Source: a virus (Duplodnaviria; Caudoviricetes). Taken from it: DNA of 64,000 nt. How positions within the stretch are numbered: the first letter of the stretch is position 1; the number at the start of each line of letters is the position of its first letter. The translations under genes were made by a program, and so were the position numbers. Under the pieces are notes generated by a model. That model had not been told where the DNA came from. It saw nothing but the letters and a program-made list of their open reading frames with translations, and did not search any database. Shown here in pieces: positions 9,789-38,235 of this stretch. The stretch lies in IMG/VR virus record IMGVR_UViG_3300035208_004396; one strand, written 5' to 3'.

Positions 9789-10699
9789 TATGCTAATGTT
9801 ATCTTGAAACTATAATCGCCTTTATTCCAAGACCCTATTTTTAAGGAATTACATATTCGATATGCTTCTCCTACACTGTTAGGTGCAGAAAACATTCTAT
9901 AATCACTATCGTTTAATAATAACAACCAGGATAAATAATTTAATTTTGAATAAGCATACAGATGACATGATGCTAAAGTCACTTTTAGATCTTTATACCT
10001 AGAATAAACTTCCATAGCTTCATTAGATATGCTAATTGAAGGTTTAGATAAATTCTGCAAATATGAAAAAACTTGATATAAACCTTTATTATCCGTGTTA
10101 TTCTTAATAATTTCGATATATTCATCTGTAAGTTCATCTGTTATTTCATCTATTCCAAGTTGTTTGAACAATGAAAGCATTAAAGATTTACTCATCATTT
10201 TAAATCTATTGTCTTGACCATCACCGAATTTTCCACCTTTACCTTTGACTTCTATTTTTTGATTGGTATCTAAATCTACTAAATCCCCTTTGTCTTTACA
10301 AAAACCTAAATTTACAAATAATGATGCGAAAAGAAATTCACCTCTACCTATTGCAGGTCTATTAGTTGTTACTCTTAAAGCATCAGTGATATATTCGGGT
10401 TTAAGATAACCATCTAGACTGGATTGTTTCAACAGTGATGATAATTTAGCAGGACCATATTCCATAGGTTTAAAATGAGTTTTATATAATTTTTCAAAGA
10501 ATTTATCTGGAAAACCTATCAAATCTTTCTCAATTATCTGAGCATGATCTGTAATAACATTATGTTTACCAGATTTAGTTTCTGTCCATAACTTTGCTAA
10601 TTTTGCTTCTATATTGTCCAAATTTATCTCATTTTTTATCCTTTGCAAGATATCATCGTTAACTTGAACTTCTTTACCATTTACGGATACATTTGGCAT
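9788..10699 (-). CDS. Putative PD-(D/E)xK nuclease-fold protein
   Basis: G.GEF....L...GDL.......IEVK motif. Confidence 0.5.
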   Translation of the reverse strand: MPNVSVNGKEVQVNDDILQRIKNEINLDNIEAKLAKLWTETKSGKHNVITDHAQIIEKDLIGFPDKFFEKLYKTHFKPMEYGPAKLSSLLKQSSLDGYLKPEYITDALRVTTNRPAIGRGEFLFASLFVNLGFCKDKGDLVDLDTNQKIEVKGKGGKFGDGQDNRFKMMSKSLMLSLFKQLGIDEITDELTDEYIEIIKNNTDNKGLYQVFSYLQNLSKPSISISNEAMEVYSRYKDLKVTLASCHLYAYSKLNYLSWLLLLNDSDYRMFSAPNSVGEAYRICNSLKIGSWNKGDYSFKITLA

Positions 10700-26312: not shown

Positions 26313-29219
26313 ATGTCGAAGTATTCTACACCAGACGTGTACTTCAACGAAATCGATCATACAGTTCGTAATAATACCACTGTTGGCGATGGACGAGGTG
26401 CTATTGTCTTTAATGCTGACAAAGGTTATGTAAATCAACGAATTTTAACTACGGGTTATTCTAATTTCAAAACTCAATTTGGTACGCCGACTAACAGTTC
26501 TAATTATGGTCATTTTGCTGCAGAACAATTCTTTGCTAACGGTTCTACACAACTTCTTGGAGTTCGTGCTACTATGGGCGATGAAAGATATGCTTTCATT
26601 CAATACCCCTATAACAGTGCTGGTATAGCTAATACTAATCTGGATTCTACAACTCAAGAATTAGAATATGTAGATTATGAAGGTGAACATAACTTAGTAT
26701 TACTAAATGCTTTTAAGGGAGATTTGAGTACTTATACTGCAGATAACTGGCATTATATTGATAATACAGCAACATTCTTTATGTATTCATACGGGAAAGT
26801 TTCCGATTTTGCTGATTTATATAATGATGGCGCTGATGAAGTCAGAATAGTATATCGTGATTCTAAAAATGCTGAAATTACTGCTAATTCGGGTACATTT
26901 TATAAGATTCCTACTAGTGATAAACTCACAAATTATAACAGATTTGCTCTGAATCAAGCCGGTATAAATTCTTCGCCATTAACTGCTGATGCAACAGGAT
27001 CTTCGGCATATTATCATTTTGATTCTAGTGATAGCATAAATGATACTTCTGCTACTTATTATAAGACTTATTTACATCTTGATGCTGGATATTCGTTGAA
27101 TTCTACTGATATTGATGCTCAATATTATCTCAATTCTGGTGTTTTAACTGGAACTTCTGCTGAATTGACAACGTTATTAAACAATGAATCCATTTTAGGT
27201 TTAACAAGTGCAGATTCTGCATATTCGGCTAATGCTTCGAAATTAGTAGTTGCGGATTGGGATGAAAATCTAGAATTGAAGACCTATTATGTTAATAAAT
27301 CATCTTTTACTTCTCCAAATGTTAGTGGCATAGAATATCGTGAATACTCTCATGGTGATAAAGATTTTGCTCTGTGTATCAATGCTATTTCTAGTATTAG
27401 ATGTGATAATATGACTGGTTCTGATAGTTTTGCTATTTTAGAAGATCTAGCGGATCAATATGGTTTAGCAGTTACGGATATTAACAATTCATCATATTGC
27501 AATTTGAAATATACTGATGCTAAGTCACAAGAGGAAGTAAATTTATTGGTTTATAATGATGGCTTATCTGAAGGATTCGGGGCTTATTCTAGTACACCAA
27601 ATCTATTCATCTTATACCAAGATCAAAATAACTCAAATAAAACTAAAGGTGAAGCCATTTATTATCATAAAGATCCTAAAAATGTTATTTTACCTTGGCA
27701 GATTAGTAAAAATAATGTCCCGGAACTCATTGCACAAAGCACATTAGAGATGTTCAGCGATAGCACGGGAATCTGGTCAGATGGTTATACTCCTACTAGC
27801 ATAGATGAAGAACCGGGCAATGGTGACGTTGAAAGTTATACAGATAAATCTAAGAACTTGGTCATAGCTGCATTAGCTCCAGGGGATTACTTGAATAGAA
27901 TTGGTATTTCAATAATAACACCGGATTGCGAAGATATACCGGCATTGAATGGACCTAATACATTCGATTGGAAATATCTTTTCGATGATGAAGACAAGGT
28001 CGATAATGGTGCAGATAACTTGACTTATAAGAAAGTCTATAAGTTGAATGTTTATGTTCGGAATATAGATCAAGATGAATCTATATGGGGTACTGGTTTA
28101 ACTAGTTTGAATTATGACCCTACCGAATCATTCTATGTGTCTAATGATCCTACGGCAAAAGATTTACAAGGTAATAGCTTATATGTTACTGATGTGATTA
28201 ATGGTCATTCTAACTATATCTACGTTTCTAAGAAATCAGTAGAAACATCTTTCGTATCAAATATAGGGGGTGTTACTACTTATGATATGCCATCCCAAAC
28301 TTATTCTATTTATAGTCTTAGTGGTGGTAAGAATTCTAAATTGAATGATATTAAGCAGAAAACGGCAGCATTACAGCTTTTCGAGGACAACGAGAAGTCT
28401 GATTTCGATATTATATTTAATGTTGAACCGATTGAAAGTTTTACGGGTAAACAAAAATATAAAGCGATGCAAGATAAGATTGCTAATATTGCTATTACAC
28501 GTGGAAAAGATATCGGGTTCATTCAGACCACATCGAAAGCGGCGAAAACTGGTTCATTGATGGTAAGTGAAAGTAAGAATTTCAAATATACTAATGGTTC
28601 TTACGTTGCTGGTTATGGCGGATATGATAAGTCATATAACAGTGACATCAGTGCATGGATTAATATCCCTAAGTCGGTGGCCGGTGCTTGTGCTGAATGT
28701 TTTTGTCAGATTTATTCATATCCCTGGATGGCACCTGCGGGAACAGAACGCGGTGTAATAGCATATTCAGATGGTACTACACCTAAATTGAGTAAATTGG
28801 ATATGGGTAAGTTATATAATCAAAACATCAATACTTCTCGTACTTTCCCAGCTTATGGCGAAACTTTATTCACTCAGAAAACTATGTTGAAGAAAGATTC
28901 CGCACTGAACAGAATAGATGTTAGATCGCTGGTGAATACAATAGAAAAGAACTTATATATATTGCTTTTGCCGTTCATTTACAAGAAAAATACTGCCACT
29001 ACAAGAAGTTCTATGAAATCTACAGTCGAAGATTTATTAGGTAGAATTAAGGCTGGAGAAGGTATAACTTCATATTCAGTAACAGTTAAATCTGATTCTA
29101 ATGATCCGCATTTGGTTTATGTAAACTTGACTATCATTCCGGCCGAATCTATTGAATTCATCGAAGTCAATATCACGTTGGAAAGAGATCAGGGAATAAC
29201 ATTCGCGGAAGCTGCTTAA
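26313..29219 (+). CDS. gp18: Tail sheath protein with large central insertion
   Basis: TPDVY.NEID, FG.P, PWMAPAGTERG, ALNRIDVR, P..SIEFI; TATAAATA and AGGAG upstream of ATG 26313. Confidence 0.95.
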   Translation: MSKYSTPDVYFNEIDHTVRNNTTVGDGRGAIVFNADKGYVNQRILTTGYSNFKTQFGTPTNSSNYGHFAAEQFFANGSTQLLGVRATMGDERYAFIQYPYNSAGIANTNLDSTTQELEYVDYEGEHNLVLLNAFKGDLSTYTADNWHYIDNTATFFMYSYGKVSDFADLYNDGADEVRIVYRDSKNAEITANSGTFYKIPTSDKLTNYNRFALNQAGINSSPLTADATGSSAYYHFDSSDSINDTSATYYKTYLHLDAGYSLNSTDIDAQYYLNSGVLTGTSAELTTLLNNESILGLTSADSAYSANASKLVVADWDENLELKTYYVNKSSFTSPNVSGIEYREYSHGDKDFALCINAISSIRCDNMTGSDSFAILEDLADQYGLAVTDINNSSYCNLKYTDAKSQEEVNLLVYNDGLSEGFGAYSSTPNLFILYQDQNNSNKTKGEAIYYHKDPKNVILPWQISKNNVPELIAQSTLEMFSDSTGIWSDGYTPTSIDEEPGNGDVESYTDKSKNLVIAALAPGDYLNRIGISIITPDCEDIPALNGPNTFDWKYLFDDEDKVDNGADNLTYKKVYKLNVYVRNIDQDESIWGTGLTSLNYDPTESFYVSNDPTAKDLQGNSLYVTDVINGHSNYIYVSKKSVETSFVSNIGGVTTYDMPSQTYSIYSLSGGKNSKLNDIKQKTAALQLFEDNEKSDFDIIFNVEPIESFTGKQKYKAMQDKIANIAITRGKDIGFIQTTSKAAKTGSLMVSESKNFKYTNGSYVAGYGGYDKSYNSDISAWINIPKSVAGACAECFCQIYSYPWMAPAGTERGVIAYSDGTTPKLSKLDMGKLYNQNINTSRTFPAYGETLFTQKTMLKKDSALNRIDVRSLVNTIEKNLYILLLPFIYKKNTATTRSSMKSTVEDLLGRIKAGEGITSYSVTVKSDSNDPHLVYVNLTIIPAESIEFIEVNITLERDQGITFAEAA

Positions 29220-29223
29220 AAAT

Positions 29224-29281
29224 AAAAAGGATCCTTTAAGGATCCTTTTTTATTAAAAAAAACCCTATAAAGGGTTTTTTT
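29224..29281. terminator. Two back-to-back intrinsic terminators between convergent genes
   Basis: AAAAAGGATCC-TTTAA-GGATCCTTTTT and AAAAAAAACCCT-ATAA-AGGGTTTTTT. Confidence 0.85.
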
Positions 29282-29284
29282 AGT

Positions 29285-30073
29285 TCACTTATTTAATCGC
29301 TGTTTTTCGTCATCTTTTACACCTTTTATGAATGATTCTTTAGATTTAAGCCATTCTTTATTCAATGGAGATTTATATAACGGAATATTGATATTTTTAA
29401 TATTATAATCTAGATACATCGATCTAATTTCATCGATTAAACTATCGCTCATAGATGAAATCTCTAATTTTGCTATTTTCTCGTTGGAATTTTCCGATTT
29501 TACTAAACTTTCTTCATAAAGACTCTTATAATCCATACTGAAGTCTATTTTATCATCGCCATAACGTAAAACACTCTTGAAATCTTCTACATTTAATCCA
29601 TAATATATTGATTTAGGTGAATAATTTGCTAAATAATCTCGCATAATTTTTGAAAATTGTGCTATATCCATCTTATCATGAGAGTTATTTTCCGACCATT
29701 CTTCGAATTCTTTAAAATATCTTTCGTATAAGTATTGTATCTTATTTAACATGGACTTAATCCAACTATCTTTTACAGGAGCTATTTCACTTCCTATACA
29801 TTTCAAACTCGGTATAACTGTCATTTTATCTGAAATAGTGAATGCAAATTCCTTGTCATTAAGTCTTTTAGAAAGATCAGTATTGATATTTTTTGTGAAA
29901 AACCAAATAGGTTTAGTTTTATAACCGAATAATGTTTTCGCACTTAATTTAGCTTCATCATATTTACGTCCGAAACGAGCTTCTCTATCAGCTTCGGCTT
30001 TTTTGAAATATTGTTGATAATTATGAGAATAACCACCATAATTAGTATTATAATATTCTAAGAATCTTTCCAT
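29285..30073 (-). CDS. Hypothetical protein
   Basis: 262-aa ORF; ATATATA-N5-ATG. Confidence 0.55.
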   Translation of the reverse strand: MERFLEYYNTNYGGYSHNYQQYFKKAEADREARFGRKYDEAKLSAKTLFGYKTKPIWFFTKNINTDLSKRLNDKEFAFTISDKMTVIPSLKCIGSEIAPVKDSWIKSMLNKIQYLYERYFKEFEEWSENNSHDKMDIAQFSKIMRDYLANYSPKSIYYGLNVEDFKSVLRYGDDKIDFSMDYKSLYEESLVKSENSNEKIAKLEISSMSDSLIDEIRSMYLDYNIKNINIPLYKSPLNKEWLKSKESFIKGVKDDEKQRLNK

Positions 30074-30098: not shown

Positions 30099-30170
30099 TT
30101 GAGAAAGATTTAATAATTTCTTATATTATGATCATTGGAACTGAGATTCCAATCGGCTAATTGACAATTC
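30099..30170 (+). promoter_or_regulatory. Sigma70 promoter with boxB/boxA-like leader (copy 1)
   Basis: TTGAGA-17-TATATT, then ATTGGAA-CTGAGA-TTCCAAT hairpin and TAATTGACAA. Confidence 0.75.
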
Positions 30171-30189
30171 GGAACATTTTCAATCTTTT

Positions 30190-30520
30190 TAGAATTAAAC
30201 TGTAGGCTCAGAAACAGCCATCAGCTAAAGAGTGGCAAAGGTTCCTCCTAGTATAACGGGGACGGTGAAAACTTAGCAAAAGCCCGTTTAAGTCATGTTA
30301 ATTAATAGGACATGATGACATATGCTGGAGGATAATCAATCGATTTGTTACGTACATTCAAACTAGTTAAAAAACTGTGAAATAATACCAAGGCTAATGA
30401 GTGCTAAGTCTGGTCTAAGGTGAAATTTCACAGCCAGAAGATCTCCGGGTTTGATATGTATAGTATACATTCGGGTAAGTTAATTGCTCGAGCCTTTGGA
30501 GTAAAATTACATTTTTTCTA
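30190..30520 (+). ncRNA. ~330-nt structured ncRNA with a 23S rRNA H43/H44 (uL11 site)-like core
   Basis: TGTAGGCTCAGAAACAGCCATCAGCTAAAGA at 30201; closing GGAGTAAAATTACA; many internal hairpins. Confidence 0.7.
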
Positions 30521-30591
30521 TTGAGATTCATCTAATTTTTTCTATATTTCAATTTGTTAAAGATTCAAATCTTAACTGTTAATTGAAATTT
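30521..30591 (+). promoter_or_regulatory. Sigma70 promoter with hairpin and boxA-like leader (copy 2)
   Basis: TTGAGA-16-TATATT, hairpin GTTAAAGAT-TCAA-ATCTTAAC, TAATTGAAATT. Confidence 0.6.
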
Positions 30592-30607
30592 TGGTTTTAT
30601 TTTTTAT

Positions 30608-30691
30608 GCCCAGGTGGTGGAATTGGTAGACACTAGGGACTTAAAATCCCTTGGTCGTAAGATCGTGAGGGTTCGATTCCCTCTTTGGGCA
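30608..30691 (+). tRNA. tRNA-Leu(TAA)
   Basis: Full cloverleaf with long variable arm and GTTCGATTC T loop. Confidence 0.95.
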
Positions 30692-30694
30692 CTA

Positions 30695-30765
30695 TAAGGC
30701 GTGGTTTAGCTGCTACGTCTTAGAAATGGAAAACGTTTGAGCTAACAAACGTTTTAGTTTCCATT
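30695..30765 (+). ncRNA. Kissing-loop two-hairpin RNA, copy 1
   Basis: Loops TTAGCT and AGCTAA are exact reverse complements; GAA junction. Confidence 0.7.
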
Positions 30766-30769
30766 AGCT

Positions 30770-30844
30770 ATATTATTCGTATAATTCTGGCAGTACAATC
30801 GCCTATCGGCAGATTGGTATGGGTTCGAATCCCATATAATATAT
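30770..30844 (+). tRNA. tRNA-like RNA with all-A/U acceptor stem and aberrant anticodon arm
   Basis: D arm GTAT/GTAC, T arm ATGGG-TTCGAAT-CCCAT; anticodon arm irregular. Confidence 0.6.
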
Positions 30845-31013
30845 CTTTTAGTTGAAATAAAATAGAGATTAAAAATCCTTGCCATAAACTTCCTAGATCT
30901 ATAAGGCAAAAGATAAAACGATACGTGAATGAATGTGTAATAAGCATAATCTAGTATATTCACATTATATTGTTTAATCCCCCCGTCAAGTTTTACTGGG
31001 TTCTTGACATTTT

Positions 31014-31088
31014 GGCCGAGTAACCGAATTTGGCATAGGTACTTGTTTCAAACACAAGATTTTGTGGGTTCGATTCCCGCCTTGGCCA
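31014..31088 (+). tRNA. tRNA-Leu(CAA), short variable loop
   Basis: CTTGT-TTCAAAC-ACAAG anticodon arm; 5-nt variable loop. Confidence 0.9.
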
Positions 31089-31092
31089 CTAT

Positions 31093-31164
31093 GCCGTTAT
31101 ATGTCAATGGTTAGACGAAAGGACTTTTAATCCTTGGATCCGAGTTCGAGTCTCGGTAACGGCA
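31093..31164 (+). tRNA. tRNA-Lys(TTT)
   Basis: Full cloverleaf. Confidence 0.95.
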
Positions 31165-31447
31165 CTAATTTTCAGGAAAAAAGATAAAAAACCTCGACTG
31201 GATGTAAGTAAAGAGGGGTTTGACCTTTTCAGATTTTAGACGTAAAATCGATAACAAAAGGTTCTTTTTATACTTAATATAATTTAAGATCTCGATTAAG
31301 TTGAAATAAAATAGAGATTACCACCTAAATTTTCTTAGAAGTTTAGGAAAGGCTGAGTGGTTGAGCACTGACCGAGTACCACTGAAATAATAAAAAATGC
31401 AGTTCGGTCATCATTTTATAGGATTGATAACTATTATGGATAAAACA

Positions 31448-31690
31448 ATGAATAAAAATGAATTTGATGAATTATTCAAGGTTCCTGCTAATATGGATTC
31501 AGATTCATATGAGGACTGGATAAGGAAAAAGTGCATCGATCTTCGAAACGGTATTGACTTTATGATTGAGAATATTGAATATTTGGAGGGTGATGCTGGC
31601 GAATTTCCGTCCGAAAGAGAATCTGTATACGATAAATGTTATTCTAGATATCAGGAGTTATTCGATAATTCAACCGAAAATGTAGATTGA
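31448..31690 (+). CDS. Small acidic hypothetical protein
   Basis: ORF within the tRNA region; start 31436 or 31448. Confidence 0.55.
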   Translation: MNKNEFDELFKVPANMDSDSYEDWIRKKCIDLRNGIDFMIENIEYLEGDAGEFPSERESVYDKCYSRYQELFDNSTENVD

Positions 31691-31692
31691 CT

Positions 31693-31902
31693 ATGAAATA
31701 CAATGGCATAGAACTAGTCGATGTAAGTCAGAAGGAATCTATTACAAATGATGATCCCATAGAAATGATCTGTTGGAATGATGGAGATATTCCAGTCAGG
31801 TGTATAGTTTATGCAATAGTTCCGGGAAGTAGATATCCTGTTATTACTGATTGTAATAGATGCATAGTATTTCAACATTGTGCATATAATAACGTTTTTT
31901 AA
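31693..31902 (+). CDS. Small hypothetical protein
   Basis: Follows the previous ORF; P.EM..W.D....HCA pattern. Confidence 0.55.
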   Translation: MKYNGIELVDVSQKESITNDDPIEMICWNDGDIPVRCIVYAIVPGSRYPVITDCNRCIVFQHCAYNNVF

Positions 31903-31970
31903 AGTTACAGGTAAAAAGAATCACTCCACTATAATATGTCGGTTTCTTGAGAAGGTTCTTCCGACATTTA

Positions 31971-32046
31971 GGCCAGGTAGCCGAATTTGGTATAGGCGTG
32001 GCGCCTAGGACGCCATTTTTTGAGGGTTCGAATCCCTTCTTGGCCA
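31971..32046 (+). tRNA. tRNA-Leu(TAG), short variable loop, C33
   Basis: TGGCG-CCTAGGA-CGCCA. Confidence 0.88.
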
Positions 32047-32080
32047 CTTTTAAGCTGGAATAGTTTGATAAATATAAAAA

Positions 32081-32164
32081 GGAGATGTGTGCGAGTTGGT
32101 TTATGCAGGTAATCCTGAAAATTACTGGTCTTATGGCCCGTAGGTTCGAATCCTACCATCTCCT
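32081..32164 (+). tRNA. tRNA-Ser(TGA), C33
   Basis: GTAAT-CCTGAAA-ATTAC; long variable arm. Confidence 0.9.
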
Positions 32165-32168
32165 CTAT

Positions 32169-32250
32169 GGAAGATTACGCTAAAGGTAAGCGGAAGCTTT
32201 GCTAAAGCTTTGAGGCAAAACTCTTATAGGTTCGAGTCCTATATCTTCCT
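32169..32250 (+). tRNA. tRNA-Ser(GCT)
   Basis: Full cloverleaf with long variable arm. Confidence 0.92.
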
Positions 32251-32253
32251 TAC

Positions 32254-32325
32254 TGCCTAGTCGTATAAAAGCAAGTATAATGGACTTTGAATCCATTGGA
32301 CGGGGAGCGTTACCCTGCTAGGCAA
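32254..32325 (+). tRNA. tRNA-Gln(TTG), variant T loop
   Basis: ATGGA-CTTTGAA-TCCAT; T loop AGCGTTA; U1-A72. Confidence 0.85.
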
Positions 32326-32343
32326 GATTTTTAAAAATAATAG

Positions 32344-32414
32344 TTGAGAAATAAGAATTTCTTTTCTATATTATGATCATTGGAAACGAGATTTCCAATC
32401 GCTTATTGAATATT
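32344..32414 (+). promoter_or_regulatory. Sigma70 promoter with boxB/boxA-like leader (copy 3)
   Basis: TTGAGA-17-TATATT, then ATGATCATTGGAAA-CGAGA-TTTCCAATCG and TTATTGAAT; near-duplicate of copy 1. Confidence 0.78.
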
Positions 32415-32415
32415 A

Positions 32416-32486
32416 CGGAATATGGTGTAATGGTAACACAATAGCTTTGCAAGTTATTTTCCCGAGTTCGAATCTCGGTATCTACA
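32416..32486 (+). tRNA. tRNA-Ala(TGC) with poorly paired acceptor stem (possible pseudo-tRNA)
   Basis: D, anticodon and T arms intact; acceptor CGGAATA/TATCTAC has 3 mismatches. Confidence 0.6.
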
Positions 32487-32490
32487 CTAT

Positions 32491-32572
32491 GCTAGCGATG
32501 CGGAATTGGTACCGCCCCTGACTGTAGATCAGGCGCCTTCGGGCTATGTGGGTTCGAATCCTTCCGCTAGCA
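32491..32572 (+). tRNA. tRNA-Tyr(GTA)
   Basis: Cloverleaf with GCC-TTCG-GGC variable arm. Confidence 0.92.
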
Positions 32573-32575
32573 CTA

Positions 32576-32641
32576 TGAGATTGAATTTGACGGTTCTATC
32601 TCAGAAATGGTTATTATTTTCGTCAAAAAATAATGACCGTT
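32576..32641 (+). ncRNA. Kissing-loop two-hairpin RNA, copy 2
   Basis: Loops TTGACG and CGTCAA are exact reverse complements; same GAA-ATGG junction as copy 1. Confidence 0.7.
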
Positions 32642-32654
32642 ATTATAGTAAAGT

Positions 32655-32727
32655 GACTTCTATAGTATAATTGGTATTACGTGCCACCGTTGCGATGGAG
32701 ATATGTGTTCGAACCACATTAGAAGTC
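32655..32727 (+). tRNA. tRNA-His-like body (G-1:C73) with aberrant anticodon arm
   Basis: 8-bp acceptor GACTTCTA/TAGAAGTC; anticodon region CCA-CCGTTGCGA-TGG has no GTG. Confidence 0.6.
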
Positions 32728-32858
32728 CTAATTTTATTATCTTTTTGGGCATGCTTAGCTGATAACAACATGAAAATCTATCTGATCAAATAATATCTGA
32801 ATAAGCATCGGCGAAAATATGCAACGGGTAGAATAATAAGTTATTTTTTAGGAGAAGC

Positions 32859-32929
32859 TTATGAAATGGCAGCTACCATTTAAAGACTATTAAAGTCTGC
32901 AAAGGTTCGAATTCTTTCTTGCACACTTA
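32859..32929 (+). ncRNA. Second 23S H43/H44-like RNA, with a tRNA T-arm in place of the H44 loop
   Basis: AGCT..GCAGCTACCATTTAAAGA..GC-[AAAGGTTCGAATTCTTT]-GCACAC. Confidence 0.6.
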
Positions 32930-33030
32930 TATAAAAATCCCATACTTAAATGGGCTATATTGATACAATTGGCAGTATAGATAGCGAGAGTTGGGACTTA
33001 GCTCTAAAATAAGAGGTACCAGATTTTTAT

Positions 33031-33103
33031 CGCGGGTGAGTGAAACGGTTTACACATTTGGTTCATACCCAAAAAATAGTCGGTTCGACCCCGACACCCG
33101 CTA
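33031..33103 (+). tRNA. tRNA-Met(CAT), initiator-like
   Basis: C1:U72 mismatch, CGCGGG 5' end; only two G-C pairs next to the anticodon loop. Confidence 0.88.
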
Positions 33104-33115
33104 TTTAAAGTTTAT

Positions 33116-33187
33116 TCCAATGTAGTTCAGAGGTAGAATAAGCGATTGTTAATCGTGAGGTCGGAGGTTCGAATCCTTCCATTGGAG
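33116..33187 (+). tRNA. tRNA-Asn(GTT)
   Basis: Full cloverleaf. Confidence 0.92.
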
Positions 33188-33195
33188 TTTTTTAT

Positions 33196-33291
33196 ACATC
33201 ATCATGCTGCAACGGGTCTTATAAGCCTGTACCCAACAACAAATATGCGCGGCTGGTCTTGGGGCACCGGGTTCGATTCCTGGATGATGTA
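33196..33291 (+). tRNA. D-armless tRNA-like RNA, anticodon TAT (Ile)
   Basis: Acceptor ACATCAT/ATGATGT, anticodon arm CGGGT-CTTATAA-GCCTG, T arm intact, 37-nt variable region. Confidence 0.75.
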
Positions 33292-33315
33292 CTAAGTTTA
33301 GTTATAATCCATTTT

Positions 33316-33388
33316 GACCCCTTGGCGAAATAAGGAACGCGACTGTCTGCAAAACAGTTATGATATGGTGCAATTCCATAAGAGGTCT
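33316..33388 (+). tRNA. tRNA-Cys(GCA)
   Basis: ACTGT-CTGCAAA-ACAGT; U73; variant T loop TGCAATT. Confidence 0.88.
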
Positions 33389-33408
33389 TTTTAATATATA
33401 ATCCATTA

Positions 33409-33482
33409 CGGTCTGTAGCTCAGTACAGTAGAGTACTGGTTTTGGGAACCAGATGTCGTGAGAGCGAAGCTCACCAGACCGA
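33409..33482 (+). tRNA. tRNA-Pro(TGG), variant T loop
   Basis: CTGGT-TTTGGGA-ACCAG; T loop AGCGAAG. Confidence 0.88.
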
Positions 33483-33562
33483 TAATAAATAGAGCTTCTA
33501 CTTTTAAGTTTTGAAGAGCACTTCGAAAAACTCTTTAGGTTGATTAACCTTTGAACGATCAC

Positions 33563-33605
33563 TGTTAGGAATGGTTTACCGGAGTTCGATTCTTCGACCT
33601 AGCAA
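33563..33605 (+). ncRNA. tRNA minihelix-like RNA (acceptor + D-loop-like linker + T arm)
   Basis: TGTTAGG/CCTAGCA, AATGGT linker, CGGAG-TTCGATT-CTTCG. Confidence 0.45.
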
Positions 33606-33840
33606 TATTAAGAATAAAAGCGCAAAATGTGATAAAATCAAGTTTATCATTTCCGATATGTTTAATGATTTCGGCGTTTTTATTTTTTTTAACTATATTA
33701 AGTCCCTTATATAGTGTCCAAGAACAACACTATATTAAAAGTCTGCCGAAAAAGCCTAATGATTATTACTTGGTAATCTAAGGCGATCTGATACACCACG
33801 AGGCTAGATTTAGAGGTATATACGGTGAGATCAGAATTAT

Positions 33841-33915
33841 ACTCGATTAGCTCAAGTTGGTCTAGAGCAGCTGCGTCAGGCAGCAGGGTCATTGGTTCAA
33901 ATCCAATATCGAGTA
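33841..33915 (+). tRNA. tRNA-like RNA with shortened anticodon loop centred on TCA
   Basis: Perfect acceptor, D and T arms; GCTGC-GTCAG-GCAGC. Confidence 0.7.
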
Positions 33916-33920
33916 CTTTT

Positions 33921-34000
33921 GCTCTCGTAGCCACATCGGTCTTCTAAACCGCTAAGTGTAAATGGAGCTGTAAATACAGGTTCGATCCCTGTCGAGAGTA
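33921..34000 (+). tRNA. D-armless tRNA-like RNA, anticodon TCT (Arg)
   Basis: Acceptor GCTCTCG/CGAGAGT, CGGT-CTTCTAA-ACCG, T arm intact, long variable region. Confidence 0.75.
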
Positions 34001-34048
34001 CTAAAAGATATTTATATTTCTTAAATTTAACAAAAACAAAGGAATCTA

Positions 34049-34504
34049 ATGAAAAAGTTAATCGTTTTGTGTTTCATCCTTGTTATTACGGCATGCAGTA
34101 ATAATTATTCTAATGGTGAACGAGTTGGTCTTGTAACTCAATTCTCAAAAACAGGTCTGATTTGGGATAGTTGGGAAGGACAGTTGAATATGACACAGAC
34201 TGGTATGAATAGTTCGGCTGAGTTCGATTTCAGTTTGGATAACGATATGCCAGAATTGCAAGATAAGCTTATCCCGATACTCGATTCAGCAGCTCATTAT
34301 GGTTGGAAAGTATCGTTAAGTTATACTGAAGTAACTGGATATAATTGGTTGAATAATAGAGGTTGTACAAATCATTTTATTAAAAATGTAGTTGTTTTGG
34401 ATAAGAATCCTATGCATAATGTATTTAATAAGGATACTTTGAATAAAAGTGATACCATTTATGTAGGACATCGTGATACCATTTATGTAGTAATAAAGAA
34501 GTGA
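34049..34504 (+). CDS. Phage lipoprotein
   Basis: Signal peptide with lipobox ITAC; YS.G.R.G....FS..G....WEG.L motif. Confidence 0.75.
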   Translation: MKKLIVLCFILVITACSNNYSNGERVGLVTQFSKTGLIWDSWEGQLNMTQTGMNSSAEFDFSLDNDMPELQDKLIPILDSAAHYGWKVSLSYTEVTGYNWLNNRGCTNHFIKNVVVLDKNPMHNVFNKDTLNKSDTIYVGHRDTIYVVIKK

Positions 34505-34510
34505 GTTTTA

Positions 34511-34581
34511 GCCCTTATAGTTCAATGGTAAAACACCAGATCTGTAATCTGGCTTTCTTGGTTCGAGTCCAGGTTTGGGCG
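34511..34581 (+). tRNA. tRNA-Thr(TGT), C33, two U-U acceptor mismatches
   Basis: CCAGA-TCTGTAA-TCTGG. Confidence 0.75.
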
Positions 34582-35359: not shown

Positions 35360-35968
35360 ATGGAAATAAATCTAATAAGTGGAAGCGAAGGTTTTGATAA
35401 TATACATGGTACAGTTTTCGCTATTAAAGAAGCTGCATGTATTACTATGGGTCTTCATGCTAATCCTGAACATGTATTAATGATGACTAATGAAGATATT
35501 TTCGATTATCTAAAAGATTTATTTATAGCCGAACACTCCTTATCCAAGATACCAGTAATTCGAATTATCGATAAAATGGATAAAAATGTAAGGAATCAGA
35601 TATTTAGACACACTAAAGCTAGTCCTCATTTTTATGCTCAATCTAGTAGACCAGATTGGAATAAAGGCAAAGCTAGAGATCAGAACGAATTCACTAATAA
35701 TGTCATGGATTTTAATGTTGAAGCCTTTTTAGCTATGGCTAAACAAAGATTATGTTATAAAACCGAGAAAAATACTCGTATTTGGATGGAAAGTGTTGTA
35801 GATTATCTAAAAAAATCAGATAATCCAATATTTAATGCTATTGCATTTTGTTCTGTGCCACAATGTATTTATCGTTATGGTTGTCCAGAACTTAAAAGCT
35901 GTGGTTTCTTTGATAAGAAATACTCAACTAATAAGATCGAAACTAGATATTCTGAATATCATAATTAG
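35360..35968 (+). CDS. thyX: ThyX-like FAD-dependent thymidylate synthase family protein
   Basis: AEHS, Q..RH......QSSR, N......RLC, P.C.YR..CPE...CG. Confidence 0.7.
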   Translation: MEINLISGSEGFDNIHGTVFAIKEAACITMGLHANPEHVLMMTNEDIFDYLKDLFIAEHSLSKIPVIRIIDKMDKNVRNQIFRHTKASPHFYAQSSRPDWNKGKARDQNEFTNNVMDFNVEAFLAMAKQRLCYKTEKNTRIWMESVVDYLKKSDNPIFNAIAFCSVPQCIYRYGCPELKSCGFFDKKYSTNKIETRYSEYHN

Positions 35969-38235
35969 ATAAAATCAAATCTGAATCCGGCTCTATCTTG
36001 AGCTGATTCGTTGTTTGAACTCAAAGTCTGAACTATATCATATGTTAAATAAGAACCAGATATAAATTGATAATCTATTCCACTTTCACTCTCGAAATCT
36101 GCTAAAGCTGAGCCATATATACTCAAATTTTGTGTAGTATCGGTCATAGTATAAGGCAAAGAACTAGAAATATTAGTAGCTTGATCTAATATAAAACTAG
36201 AGAATTTCTCGAATTCTATTTGATGTTCCGGATTATAAGGTATAACTAACTCAGCAGAATGATAATACATTGGTTCGTTTATTCCATTATTAACATATAG
36301 ATAATCTTTATCAAAACGATGATAGAAATCTACCGGCATAGTTAAATTACCATAATCTACACGTTCATGAGCTAAATCCGGATAAACAAAACCAGACCCA
36401 CCAGATATGGCATTATCGATTATTCCATCATCCAGTCTATAAACATCTTCATTTAATAATGTGGGTACAATAGATGCTTTTAATGATAGAGTATATGTGT
36501 CATAAGATAGGTTATAATCATTTATAATTTCATCTGGTATAGTCATATTGACATCTATATTTACGCCATTAAAACCAATATCGACACCGTTATTTTCAGC
36601 TCCTATGATCAAATCTAGAGAATCCCCGTTTATTTCAACAAATAGTAGATAATTATGAGAATTATTTACTATATTATAAACATAAGGTAAACTAGTTTCT
36701 TCATCTATACCAATCTTGAATGTCGAAGATACCTGAGTTACTCCCTGTATTTGGAATAGACTGGTTATCTTGAATGAAAAACGAGTTATATCATCAAGGA
36801 AATCAGTATCTATATTATCTGCGAATTTAATCTCTATTTTATTATATAAACCAGCGAATAATACGAAATCTTCTTTTTTGCTATTATAACCCCGAGTTAT
36901 TTCTAAATCTGCTGAGTTATCAAGGAATGTATAAACTCCAGTGATTTTATAACCTGTGTTCAGGTACAATATAACATCATCAAAACGATTCGATTTAACA
37001 GTTATTTTTTTAGAATCTAAGCTGGAAACTGGATCTATTTCGAAGGAATATACTCTTTTTACTATCAAACCTTGTTCTATGTTAGCTACTATGTTTTGAT
37101 CGAGATTTGTATCTATTTCTTGATTATTTACTATAGCAGTGCCATCCAATTTCAATTCTGACTTATTTTCGGAATATATCGCTTCACTAGAATCCGTTTG
37201 TTCGACTAATATTGGTGTTTCTTGTTCTGAATAAGATCTTACGGCATAAATATTGGTAATTTTAGTAGGTTTAATCTCAGTATCATCAATATAAAATGTC
37301 TCATTATCTAAACCAATGTAATTTGCTATAATATCAAATGTCAAATTAGTAGAATTTTCGACATTACTCAAGTTTATTTCCGGATATAATTTTGAATAAA
37401 CTGTATATGTATCGGAATAATAATACTGATAATTGTCATCATAATCTACTCTGAAATTAGGAATTCCAGCGGTGTCTAGACTAGATAATTCGAACGATAA
37501 TGGATTCTGTTCGAATTTTTCTGAAATTTCACTAATATCATCTATATTAGTTACTTCGAACCGAGACGTATAATCTTTTGAGCTATGATTAACAGTCTTA
37601 TTTGCTACTTCGAAATATGATACATTACTCCAGGTTAAATGTTTTTGCTGCATAACATAGCAACAATATGAATAAGGATTCATTATTTCAGGAGCAACTA
37701 CTTGATAAGTAGCTTGATTATTACTCGAATAATGTAAAGTTAAACTAGTAAAAATGTCAGGTTTAACCGCTTCATTGGGTATACAATTCAAAATATATGT
37801 AGAATTATCAGTTTTGAATGTTAAAAGCAAATTTAATTTAACATCGTTAAATAGATTGAATTTGCTTTCTTCGGAGAATTGTAGATATACCCTAGTATCT
37901 TTTTAAAAAGAGATGGCTTTTTGTTTATGTAAAGCAACAGTATTAGCAAAATCTGCTAACTTAACGAATTTAATGTCATCCTCATCGATTCCCAAATAGA
38001 AATCGAAGGATAGTTTCCGATCTATATAACTGATGCTAGTCTGGTCTATTATTCCAAATGTATCCATACTGCTATCGGGATAAGATTGTACAGCCAAATC
38101 ACCGTCTCTATCAGTTAAATTGAAACCTACTCCTACATTTCTCACACTTTCATAATAATCAATATTATCAATAGAAACTTTATAATGATCTTCTAATTTG
38201 GTAACATTAACATTATGTTCATCTACAATACTCAT
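35965..38235 (-). CDS. Large acidic structural-type protein, interrupted by one in-frame TAA at 37903-37905
   Basis: ORFs 37903..38235 and 35965..37830 share a frame and the interval between them has no other stop. Confidence 0.6.

Follow-up and report, generated by a model that had tools for sequence, protein, structure and literature searches.

Two-hairpin elements with covarying complementary loops in the tRNA array of a distant T4-like phage, and their probable kinship with T4 species 1 RNA

What are the two short elements that lie among the tRNA genes of this phage, each built of two adjacent hairpins with mutually complementary loops, and would these loops meet within one molecule or between molecules? 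The window, that is the whole stretch of 64,000 nucleotides that was analysed, encodes a T4-type sheath, UvsW and PolB together with a gp2-like protein, and by this gene content the source is an uncultured, distant T4-like myovirus. The ENA assemblies ERZ27249489 and ERZ27247350 contain it. Both elements sit in the tRNA array on the + strand, as mapped with ARAGORN and Rfam. An earlier note on this DNA had described each as a hairpin, a GAA linker and a second hairpin placed just after a tRNA 3' end, with loops that are reverse complements. The sequence confirmed this layout in both copies, including the start of each element, the ends given in the note being 1 nt too long. The parts are as follows.

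30695-30764, + strand: copy 1, whole element, read from the sequence
30695..30722, + strand: copy 1 hairpin 1, a 10-bp stem with two G-U pairs (sequence, folding, covariation)
30705-30712, + strand: copy 1 loop 1, 8 nt, TTTAGCTG (sequence)
30723..30725, + strand: copy 1 linker GAA, within the conserved block CTYAGAAAT (alignments)
30726..30764, + strand: copy 1 hairpin 2, 7+7 bp with a 5-nt 3' bulge at 30753-30757 (sequence, folding, covariation)
30740-30745, + strand: copy 1 loop 2, 6 nt, AGCTAA (sequence)
32576-32640, + strand: copy 2, whole element, read from the sequence
32576..32603, + strand: copy 2 hairpin 1, 10 positions with one U.U (sequence, folding, covariation)
32586-32593, + strand: copy 2 loop 1, 8 nt, TTTGACGG (sequence)
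32604..32606, + strand: copy 2 linker GAA (sequence, alignment)
32607..32640, + strand: copy 2 hairpin 2, 14 bp with two G-U pairs (sequence, folding, covariation)
32621-32626, + strand: copy 2 loop 2, 6 nt, CGTCAA (sequence)

Positions 2-7 of loop 1 in copy 1 (TTAGCT, 30706-30711) are the exact reverse complement of AGCTAA (30740-30745), and in copy 2 TTGACG (32587-32592) pairs exactly with CGTCAA, a match that can be extended to 7 nt (TTTGACG/CGTCAAA). Both copies fold into two hairpins (z = -4.9 and -4.6 against shuffles), and no closing stem of more than 3-4 bp was found around the pair. A weak terminator-like call falls within hairpin 2 of copy 1.

The folded molecule is RNA, because the stems contain nine non-Watson-Crick pairs, each of them G-U when read on the + strand, and no A-C pair. 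This bears on a DNA-level reading, in which nested inverted repeats would serve recombination, replication or cassette mobility. Such a role would suit the presence or absence of the module and its tRNA-like cassette between related phages, as well as the CACTAT junction repeated across the members, but the nine G-U pairs fold on the tRNA strand and turn into mismatches on the opposite one, which makes it extremely improbable.

Two further members, copies 3 and 4, were found on related metagenomic phage contigs, which brings the family to four distinct sequences, spread over two related lineages of phage. Copy 3 occurs as an identical sequence in several metagenomes, and its truncated version, L337, was the sole match beyond chance in pattern scans of IMG/VR, JGI metagenome contigs and GTDB genomes, whose matches were vetted by a structure script or covariance models. 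Hairpin 1 measures exactly 10 bp in all four members, and the block CTYAGAAAT is conserved in the alignments at the bases of the hairpins. In the alignment of stems and loops of the four distinct sequences, 96% of the cells are paired against 80% after shuffling, and sixteen pairs change on both sides, a count reached by none of 500 shuffles; when the partners are slid out of register, pairing falls to 35-48%. These figures support the proposal that the tRNA strand encodes a conserved, structured RNA about 70-77 nt long.

The loops follow the same pattern. Copy 4, which folds with z = -3.8 and carries a 5-nt bulge in hairpin 2 as copy 1 does, brings a third loop sequence, GUGAUU/AAUCAC, in the unchanged register. 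In this pair as in UUAGCU/AGCUAA and UUGACG/CGUCAA, positions 2-7 of loop 1 always face the entire loop 2. Three of the six loop pairs differ between copies 1 and 2 and four of the six are changed in copy 4, every one of them by compensation; over the three paired copies, five of the six pairs change on both sides and pairing stays at 100%. Such pairing is more than chance would give, the probability of six Watson-Crick pairs out of six in a fixed register being 4^-6 per copy. Compensatory change in the alignment thus bears out the claim that loop complementarity is maintained, and covariation argues that selection keeps it. The earlier wording of 'fully covarying' loops holds for three of the four distinct members and fails for copy 3, the positional orthologue of copy 2, whose stems are weakened (z = -2.3 to -2.5) and whose two loops do not match each other.

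The closest known RNA to these elements is T4 species 1 RNA, or RNAC, a link of which the earlier note made no mention. Species 1 and 2 RNAs of T4 have been known since the 1970s as abundant late in infection and without an assigned function (PMC3014915, PMC9697503). RNAC is a stable RNA of the T4 tRNA cluster, seen on Northern blots and without known function (PMC9697503, PMC3014915, PMC2330249), and is co-transcribed with the T4 tRNAs (PMC2330249). Its gene is

NC_000866 70908-71046: rnaC (RNAC), 139 nt

As with the elements, a T4-type phage carries the locus within its tRNA cluster and on the same strand as the tRNAs, a hairpin with an 8-nt loop is followed by a hairpin with a complementary 6-nt loop in the same register, and a run of AAAAU precedes the second hairpin while UA(A) follows it. 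The loops of copy 2 are identical to those of RNAC, UUUGACGG in hairpin A and CGUCAA in hairpin B; those of copies 1 and 4 are covaried versions of the RNAC loops U-UUGACG-R / CGUCAA, again in register. Among seven T-even-type homologues of RNAC the six loop pairs are 100% paired and the stems covary, the loop helix showing one compensatory change, C-G to U-A, in Yersinia phage TG1. The literature searched yielded no description of this loop-loop match in RNAC.

Since RNAC holds the same loop pair, the module of the elements is most likely a stripped-down relative of the RNAC core. The two RNAs differ around that core. RNAC has a tRNA-like frame, with an acceptor-like closing stem and a canonical T arm (GGUUCGAAUCC) directly after the second hairpin, whereas the elements lack such a frame and the tRNA-like body forms a separate, complete unit downstream. 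The first hairpin of RNAC is long and branched, and its hairpins stand 13-15 nt apart instead of the 3-4 nt of the elements. The element model R2 found no match in the RNAC loci, and the RNAC model R3 matched the window at 32549-32670 with 13.9 bits, which at E = 0.17 is not significant. Homology to the T4 RNAD was also considered and rejected, the folds not being alike.

The conservation seen in RNAC also weighs on a plainer reading, in which the element would be a cis-acting processing or insulator spacer that separates tRNA folds and sets cleavage sites, the loop match having no function. The constant order of tRNA 3' end, CTAT, element and tRNA-like body, the conserved sequence at the hairpin bases and the persistence of copy 3 without a loop match all agree with a spacer. 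However, both partners were exchanged in four of six and in three of six loop pairs, with complementarity and register kept, and in RNAC the loop pair is conserved across genera, which a neutral spacer would not retain; we consider this role improbable.

A different partner for the loops could also be imagined. As guides, they would recognise a third molecule, such as the two strands of a short duplex or a tRNA stem, and their mutual complementarity would be a by-product. Complementary loops would indeed fit both strands of one 6-bp site, and the module and the tRNA-like body next to it move together as one cassette. Yet a recurrent target site was not found, the sequences of the three loop pairs have nothing in common, a guide of six nucleotides would be very short, and the gene tables reveal no associated enzyme gene travelling with the module. 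We hold a guide function to be very unlikely.

The family was sought in databases and among related phages. Rfam searches returned tRNAs only, whether gathering cut-offs were applied or permissive ones (up to E = 10 for short stretches), in keeping with the statement that the elements belong to no named family, and a blastn comparison of this region with 50,697 phage records gave only tRNA matches. The element models R1 and R2, run on the whole records of 17 IMG/VR relatives (about 40% sheath identity), had no match. A descriptor scan of the tRNA arrays of these relatives counted 74 tandem hairpins with complementary loops of at least 6 nt against 58 in a composition-matched control, so that there was no enrichment, and no candidate had two strong stems. 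Contigs of relatives reached through the sheath, a 756-aa and a 262-aa protein ended before the tRNA array or were without one, and a 151-aa lipoprotein led to no DNA.

Several other identities were tried and set aside. A third R1 match in the window, at 29217-29286, was traced to two bidirectional terminators (29224-29283), and an intrinsic terminator is contradicted by the lack of a U tract after hairpin 2 in copies 2, 3 and 4. The Rfam tRNA model and ARAGORN match the neighbours and never the elements, which have no cloverleaf; the tRNA-shaped decoy once proposed is not supported. Self-cleaving ribozymes (hammerhead, pistol, HDV-like/theta, twister, hatchet) have no Rfam match with E up to 10, and a hammerhead reading of the hairpin-GAA-hairpin starting with A lacks the CUGANGA upstream, where GCACUAU is found. 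An H-type pseudoknot with hairpin 2 unfolded is contradicted by the covariation of that hairpin, which is far stabler than 6 bp, and a mini-ORF from the ATG of hairpin 2 (4, 8 or 12 codons) is not conserved.

The surroundings of the elements suggest how they could be made and released.

30521..30548, + strand: promoter-like site TTGAGA-N16-TATATT upstream of the copy 1 unit, consensus match only
30608..30691, + strand: tRNA-Leu(TAA) with no encoded CCA (ARAGORN; Rfam 54 bits)
30770..30843, + strand: tRNA-like body after copy 1 (Rfam tRNA 38.9 bits with alignment; not called by ARAGORN)
32344..32372, + strand: promoter-like site TTGAGA-N17-TATATT upstream of the copy 2 unit, consensus match only
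32491..32572, + strand: tRNA-Tyr(GTA) lacking an encoded CCA; CTAT and then copy 2 come next (ARAGORN, Rfam)
32656..32727, + strand: tRNA-like body downstream of copy 2, anticodon arm aberrant (Rfam tRNA 38.8 bits with alignment; not called by ARAGORN)

In a consensus scan, the hexamers TTGAGA/TATATT of the site at 30521 were seen again at 30099 and 32344. After the tRNA-Leu(TAA), whose last position is 30691, the sequence reads CTAT, and 3 nt separate the tRNA 3' end from hairpin 1 of copy 1. All four members are preceded by ...CA-CTAT ending a tRNA or a T-arm RNA, and are followed by a non-decoding tRNA-like body. Between hairpin 2 and the complete tRNA-like body downstream lie 4-15 nt. The position of the module varies, after tRNA-Leu in the window and after the T-arm RNA in L344. 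The body at 30770..30843 has intact acceptor, D and T arms and a stem with a 4-nt loop in place of the anticodon arm, and with that arm replaced it would not decode. Orthologues of the body at 32656..32727 occur in L228 and L344, and their differences are confined to the anticodon arm.

Our preferred explanation, to which as a whole we give a probability of about 45%, is that the elements are paralogues, each encoding a structured RNA about 72-77 nt long and related to RNAC, that they are carried on short promoter-driven tRNA transcripts of the + strand, and that their loops pair in trans. Each copy is flanked by a CCA-less tRNA on one side and by a tRNA-like body on the other, and it is therefore plausible that tRNA-trimming enzymes free it, probably as a stable species: an RNase Z/BN-type cut after the upstream discriminator would give the 5' end, and RNase P acting at the downstream tRNA-like body the 3' end. 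The released RNA would consist of two rigid hairpins of 10 bp and about 14 bp on an A-rich linker of 3-4 nt. Pairing is read as occurring between molecules because such a linker could not span two rigid stems lying end to end; on this geometric argument, molecules would most likely join head to tail into closed dimers or chains. The argument is one of reasoning from A-form geometry, by which the loops of one molecule would not easily be brought together. Frayed stem tops, or the bulge of hairpin 2 in copies 1 and 4, might permit a strained intramolecular fold.

Copy 3 offers a further hint. Positions 2-7 of its loop 1 (CUGCAG) and the tip of its hairpin 2 (ACUAGU) are each self-complementary, and such tips would fit pairing between molecules and not within one. 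The palindrome in loop 1 has a chance of about 1 in 64, and the palindrome at the hairpin tip is trivial.

The earlier note had instead seen a compact pseudoknot closed within one molecule, a claim that the same geometry speaks against, 3-4 nt of linker joining the bases of stems of 10 and 14 bp. Such a kissing-loop knot would be nuclease-resistant and would act in cis as a roadblock or spacer protecting tRNAs, or as a free small RNA. The loop covariation is equally compatible with pairing in cis, the 5-nt bulge of copies 1 and 4 could kink the helix, and adjacent hairpins do kiss in one molecule in guanidine-II riboswitches (PMC7357161). Nevertheless, the 10- and 14-bp stems covary and therefore form, only 0-2 loop nucleotides are left unpaired beside the 6 bp, hairpin 2 of copy 2 is a continuous 14-bp helix without a kink, and copy 3 retains the module without any match between its two loops. 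In guanidine-II there are two loop pairs and the linker must extend (PMC7357161). A knot within one molecule seems to us unlikely.

On the side of pairing between molecules, the role of the assembled RNA can be guessed from its setting among tRNAs and tRNA mimics, which would point to a link with tRNA metabolism or with tRNA-targeting host defences. A bolder proposal is that T4-type phages, T4 included through RNAC, make small RNAs that join head to tail and are active as dimers or chains, for instance as a scaffold or a decoy in the phage-host contest over tRNAs; we regard it as conceivable but rather doubtful. In any case, a loop pairing conserved in RNAC and freely covarying in a minimal relative of just two hairpins, carried by a very distant T4-like phage, provides a concrete and cheap experimental handle.

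Among known systems, the guanidine-II riboswitch (mini-ykkC) resembles the elements in having two neighbouring hairpins joined by pairing of their loops. It differs in its ACGR tetraloops, two C-G loop pairs, longer variable linker, ligand and 5' leader position, whereas the element loops have 8 and 6 nt, contain no ACGR and have no Rfam match. The phi29 pRNA and the bicoid mRNA have no sequence or Rfam relation to the elements (E up to 10), and bicoid is a eukaryotic mRNA. The pRNA has 120-174 nt, a three-way junction, a prohead-binding domain and 4 loop pairs and belongs to small podoviruses, whereas the elements are two plain hairpins with no junction in a T4-type myovirus. What these two RNAs share with the elements is the possession of two mutually complementary loops. 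In pRNA and bicoid, the loops that pair always belong to different molecules, which gives rise to dimers and to rings or chains, with six Watson-Crick loop pairs in domain III of the bicoid 3'UTR (PMC7357161, PMC4201828). For the elements, the length of the linker suggests the same pairing in trans; if it takes place between molecules, a rare natural case of RNA self-assembly would be added, and if the RNAs of T4-type phages join head to tail, they would represent natural RNA self-assembly beyond the phi29 packaging motor.

Both copies of the element in the window follow one layout. A tRNA without encoded CCA is followed by CTAT, the last T of which is already the first base of a 10-bp hairpin (H1) with an 8-nt loop (L1); a GAA linker then leads to a second hairpin (H2) of about 14 bp, beginning ATGG and closed by a 6-nt loop (L2). 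Positions 2-7 of L1 are the exact reverse complement of L2, with the loop pairs TTAGCT/AGCTAA in copy 1 and TTGACG/CGTCAA in copy 2 (7 nt counting the closing A), and RNAfold predicts two hairpins for each copy, at z = -4.9 and z = -4.6, respectively. The sequence thus bears out the earlier note, which had described two such copies with reverse-complementary loops. Each element fills the gap between the upstream tRNA and a downstream tRNA-like body.

Members of the family and their surroundings (L344, L228, L349 and L337 are contigs of related phages)
30608 to 34581, + strand: tRNA array of the window
30695-30764, + strand: copy 1, 3' of tRNA-Leu(TAA)
32576-32640, + strand: copy 2, 3' of tRNA-Tyr
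L344:9846-9917: copy 3, orthologous to copy 2 by position; L228 and L349 have the same sequence, L337 a truncated one
L344:10183-10256: copy 4, resembling copy 1
30770-30843 and 32656-32727; L344:9920-9993 and 10261-10333: tRNA-like bodies whose acceptor, D and T arms are intact

Most stem positions differ between copies 1 and 2, with pairing retained, and in the loop-loop helix three pairs of six have both bases exchanged. Near strains of the window phage carry identical elements and add no covariation information, IMG/VR relatives reach only about 40% sheath identity, and the contigs of closer relatives end short of the array. Through small ORFs inside the array, a related lineage was found on ENA and JGI contigs (sheath 87% identical, array DNA about 80% identical), and it contains two more members. 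Copy 4 has a 10-bp H1 with two G-U pairs and an H2 with a 3' bulge; its loops, G-GUGAUU-A and AAUCAC, again pair in that register through six Watson-Crick pairs, and compared with copy 1 both bases differ in four of them. Loop complementarity is kept in copy 4 and lost in copy 3, where H1 has two U.U mismatches, H2 is replaced by an unrelated 12-bp hairpin, and the L1 sequence A-CUGCAG-G lacks its complement in H2.

The nominated structure was tested on the four sequences against 500 shuffles and slid controls. It is 96% paired versus 80% in shuffles, and pairing falls to 35-48% in the slid controls; 16 pairs are changed on both sides, a count reached by none of the 500 shuffles. In the loop-loop helix pairing is complete (100%) across the three copies with bases aligned there, and both partners have changed in five of the six pairs. 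Nine stem pairs depart from Watson-Crick, every one of them G-U on the + strand with no A-C, so the fold is that of the tRNA-strand transcript and not of DNA. The two-hairpin fold is conserved on the + strand, with loop complementarity kept by compensatory change, which upholds the proposal of a structured RNA with covarying loops.

The absence of a named family was also confirmed, as Rfam 15 returned tRNAs alone, also when short stretches were searched with E up to 10. The succession of hairpin, GAA and a hairpin starting A-U is reminiscent of a hammerhead; its CUGANGA core is missing, however, and the topologies of pistol, HDV-like and twister ribozymes do not match. A terminator was rejected, the elements having no U tract and the real terminators lying at 29224-29283, as was a tRNA. 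Since tRNA models give no match over the elements themselves, the tRNA-shaped decoy suggested before is improbable. Covariance models built from two (R1) and four (R2) sequences retrieved known members only, and none in 17 whole IMG/VR relatives with 30-55 tRNAs in their arrays. Pattern scans of three collections gave chance matches plus one truncated copy 3, and in a structure-only scan of the IMG/VR relatives' arrays tandem hairpins with matching loops were not in excess over the matched control. As far as accessible data go, the family is restricted to one phage clade.

Every two-hairpin module has a tRNA-like body downstream, the anticodon arm of which is replaced, leaving it incapable of decoding. 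This arm varies fast and is the only part of the body in which L228 and L344 differ. The copy 1 type lies 3' of tRNA-Leu(TAA) in the window and 3' of a T-arm-bearing RNA in L344, each site being empty in the other phage. Module and neighbour are present or absent as a block (window 30606-30928 versus L344:8085-8220; window 32929/32930 versus L344:10183-10465), and together they behave as a cassette inside the tRNA arrays of the clade.

Phage tRNAs without CCA have to be cut endonucleolytically behind the discriminator; RNase P cleaves the 5' end of tRNA-shaped substrates. Given this context, the two cuts would free the spacer between CCA-less tRNA and tRNA-like body as an RNA about 75 nt long, shielded at both ends by stable stems. 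In known kissing complexes, a fully paired loop helix stacks coaxially on its own stem. By this geometry L2, engaged entirely in the 6-bp loop-loop helix, would stack on H2, and a kiss within one monomer, the compact pseudoknot of the earlier note, would put about 80 Å between the base of the 10-bp stem and that of the 14-bp stem, versus a maximum of about 20 Å for 3-4 nt. With this gap and, in copy 2, no bulge able to kink the helix, the monomeric kiss is unlikely and the linker probably too short for such a pseudoknot. A head-to-tail dimer would close neatly, with two linkers as corners and sides always of equal length because each consists of H1, 6 bp and H2. Copy 3, whose L1 pairing positions and H2 tip are both palindromic despite the lost L1:L2 match, is weakly consistent with pairing between molecules, at modest odds against chance. 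Two complementary loops are used in this head-to-tail manner by phi29 pRNA and bicoid mRNA (PMC7357161, PMC4201828), which the element would resemble if its loops pair between molecules, as geometry suggests.

The window phage is an uncultured, distantly T4-like myovirus of about 30% G+C, encoding a 1006-aa tail sheath (only 24-28% identical to the best cultured relatives), a UvsW helicase, a family B polymerase and a DnaB-type helicase.

Other features around the arrays
L228:6460-6523, L228:7590-7643 and window 31908-31970: tRNA-Leu leader with CACTATAATAT
30099-30127, 30521-30548 and 32344-32372: promoter-like sites preceding tRNA or non-coding units, all with hexamers TTGAGA and TATATT
29224-29283: hairpin pair, back to back and with runs of U and A, between the convergent sheath and 262-aa genes

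The hairpin pair looks like bidirectional intrinsic terminators. The promoter-like sites, found upstream of both the copy 1 and copy 2 units, may represent an early or middle class of promoter specific to the phage. Upstream of several tRNA-Leu genes lies a conserved leader, about 55 nt long and with CACTATAATAT and a hairpin, which seems to mark recombination joints of rearranged arrays. The first tRNA is separated from the 262-aa gene by an ORF-free stretch of about 380 nt (30134-30515) that matches nothing in Rfam; some of its parts are kept at 84-88% in L344. The tRNA at 33841-33916 (anticodon TCA; SeC in ARAGORN) is a candidate UGA suppressor, although the standard code keeps long window ORFs open. 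In the 756-aa gene adjoining the array, an in-frame TAA (37903-37905, - strand), TAT (Tyr) in strain L003, splits the gene into ORFs of 110 and 621 aa. In the further relative L203 the block of 202-aa and 756-aa genes (window 35360-38235) is inverted, with 77% identity in the 756-aa protein, and in place of the sheath/tRNA neighbourhood there are an RNA ligase, a kinase-like gene and NAD-salvage genes.

The closest counterpart of the element comes from the tRNA cluster of phage T4.

L211:2909-3047 (NC_000866 70908-71046, minus strand): T4 RNAC (species 1 RNA)

RNAC is a genuine late RNA, co-transcribed with tRNAs and with no role assigned (PMC9697503, PMC3014915, PMC2330249, PMC12685909); no description of its loop complementarity was found in the papers searched. 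Its fold includes two hairpins, the first capped by the 8-nt loop UUUGACGG and the second, further on, by the 6-nt loop CGUCAA; these loops share 6-nt complementarity, and both are identical to those of window copy 2. As in the element, an A-rich run ending in U precedes the second hairpin and UA(A) follows. RNAC homologues occur in 748 phage records; among seven divergent T-even-type homologues both stems covary and the loops are complementary in 7/7, Yersinia phage TG1 showing a compensating change (UUGAUG/CAUCAA). With a chance of about 4^-8 per copy for an identical 8-nt loop, shared ancestry or a common functional constraint is likely. Unlike the element, RNAC contains a T arm and an acceptor-like stem within one molecule, its first hairpin is long and branched, and its hairpins are 13-15 nt apart; covariance models give no connection between the two; we therefore call it the closest known relative or analogue, of a different family. 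The element belongs with the small, stable RNAs found in T4-type tRNA clusters, and its testable structural clue extends to RNAC.
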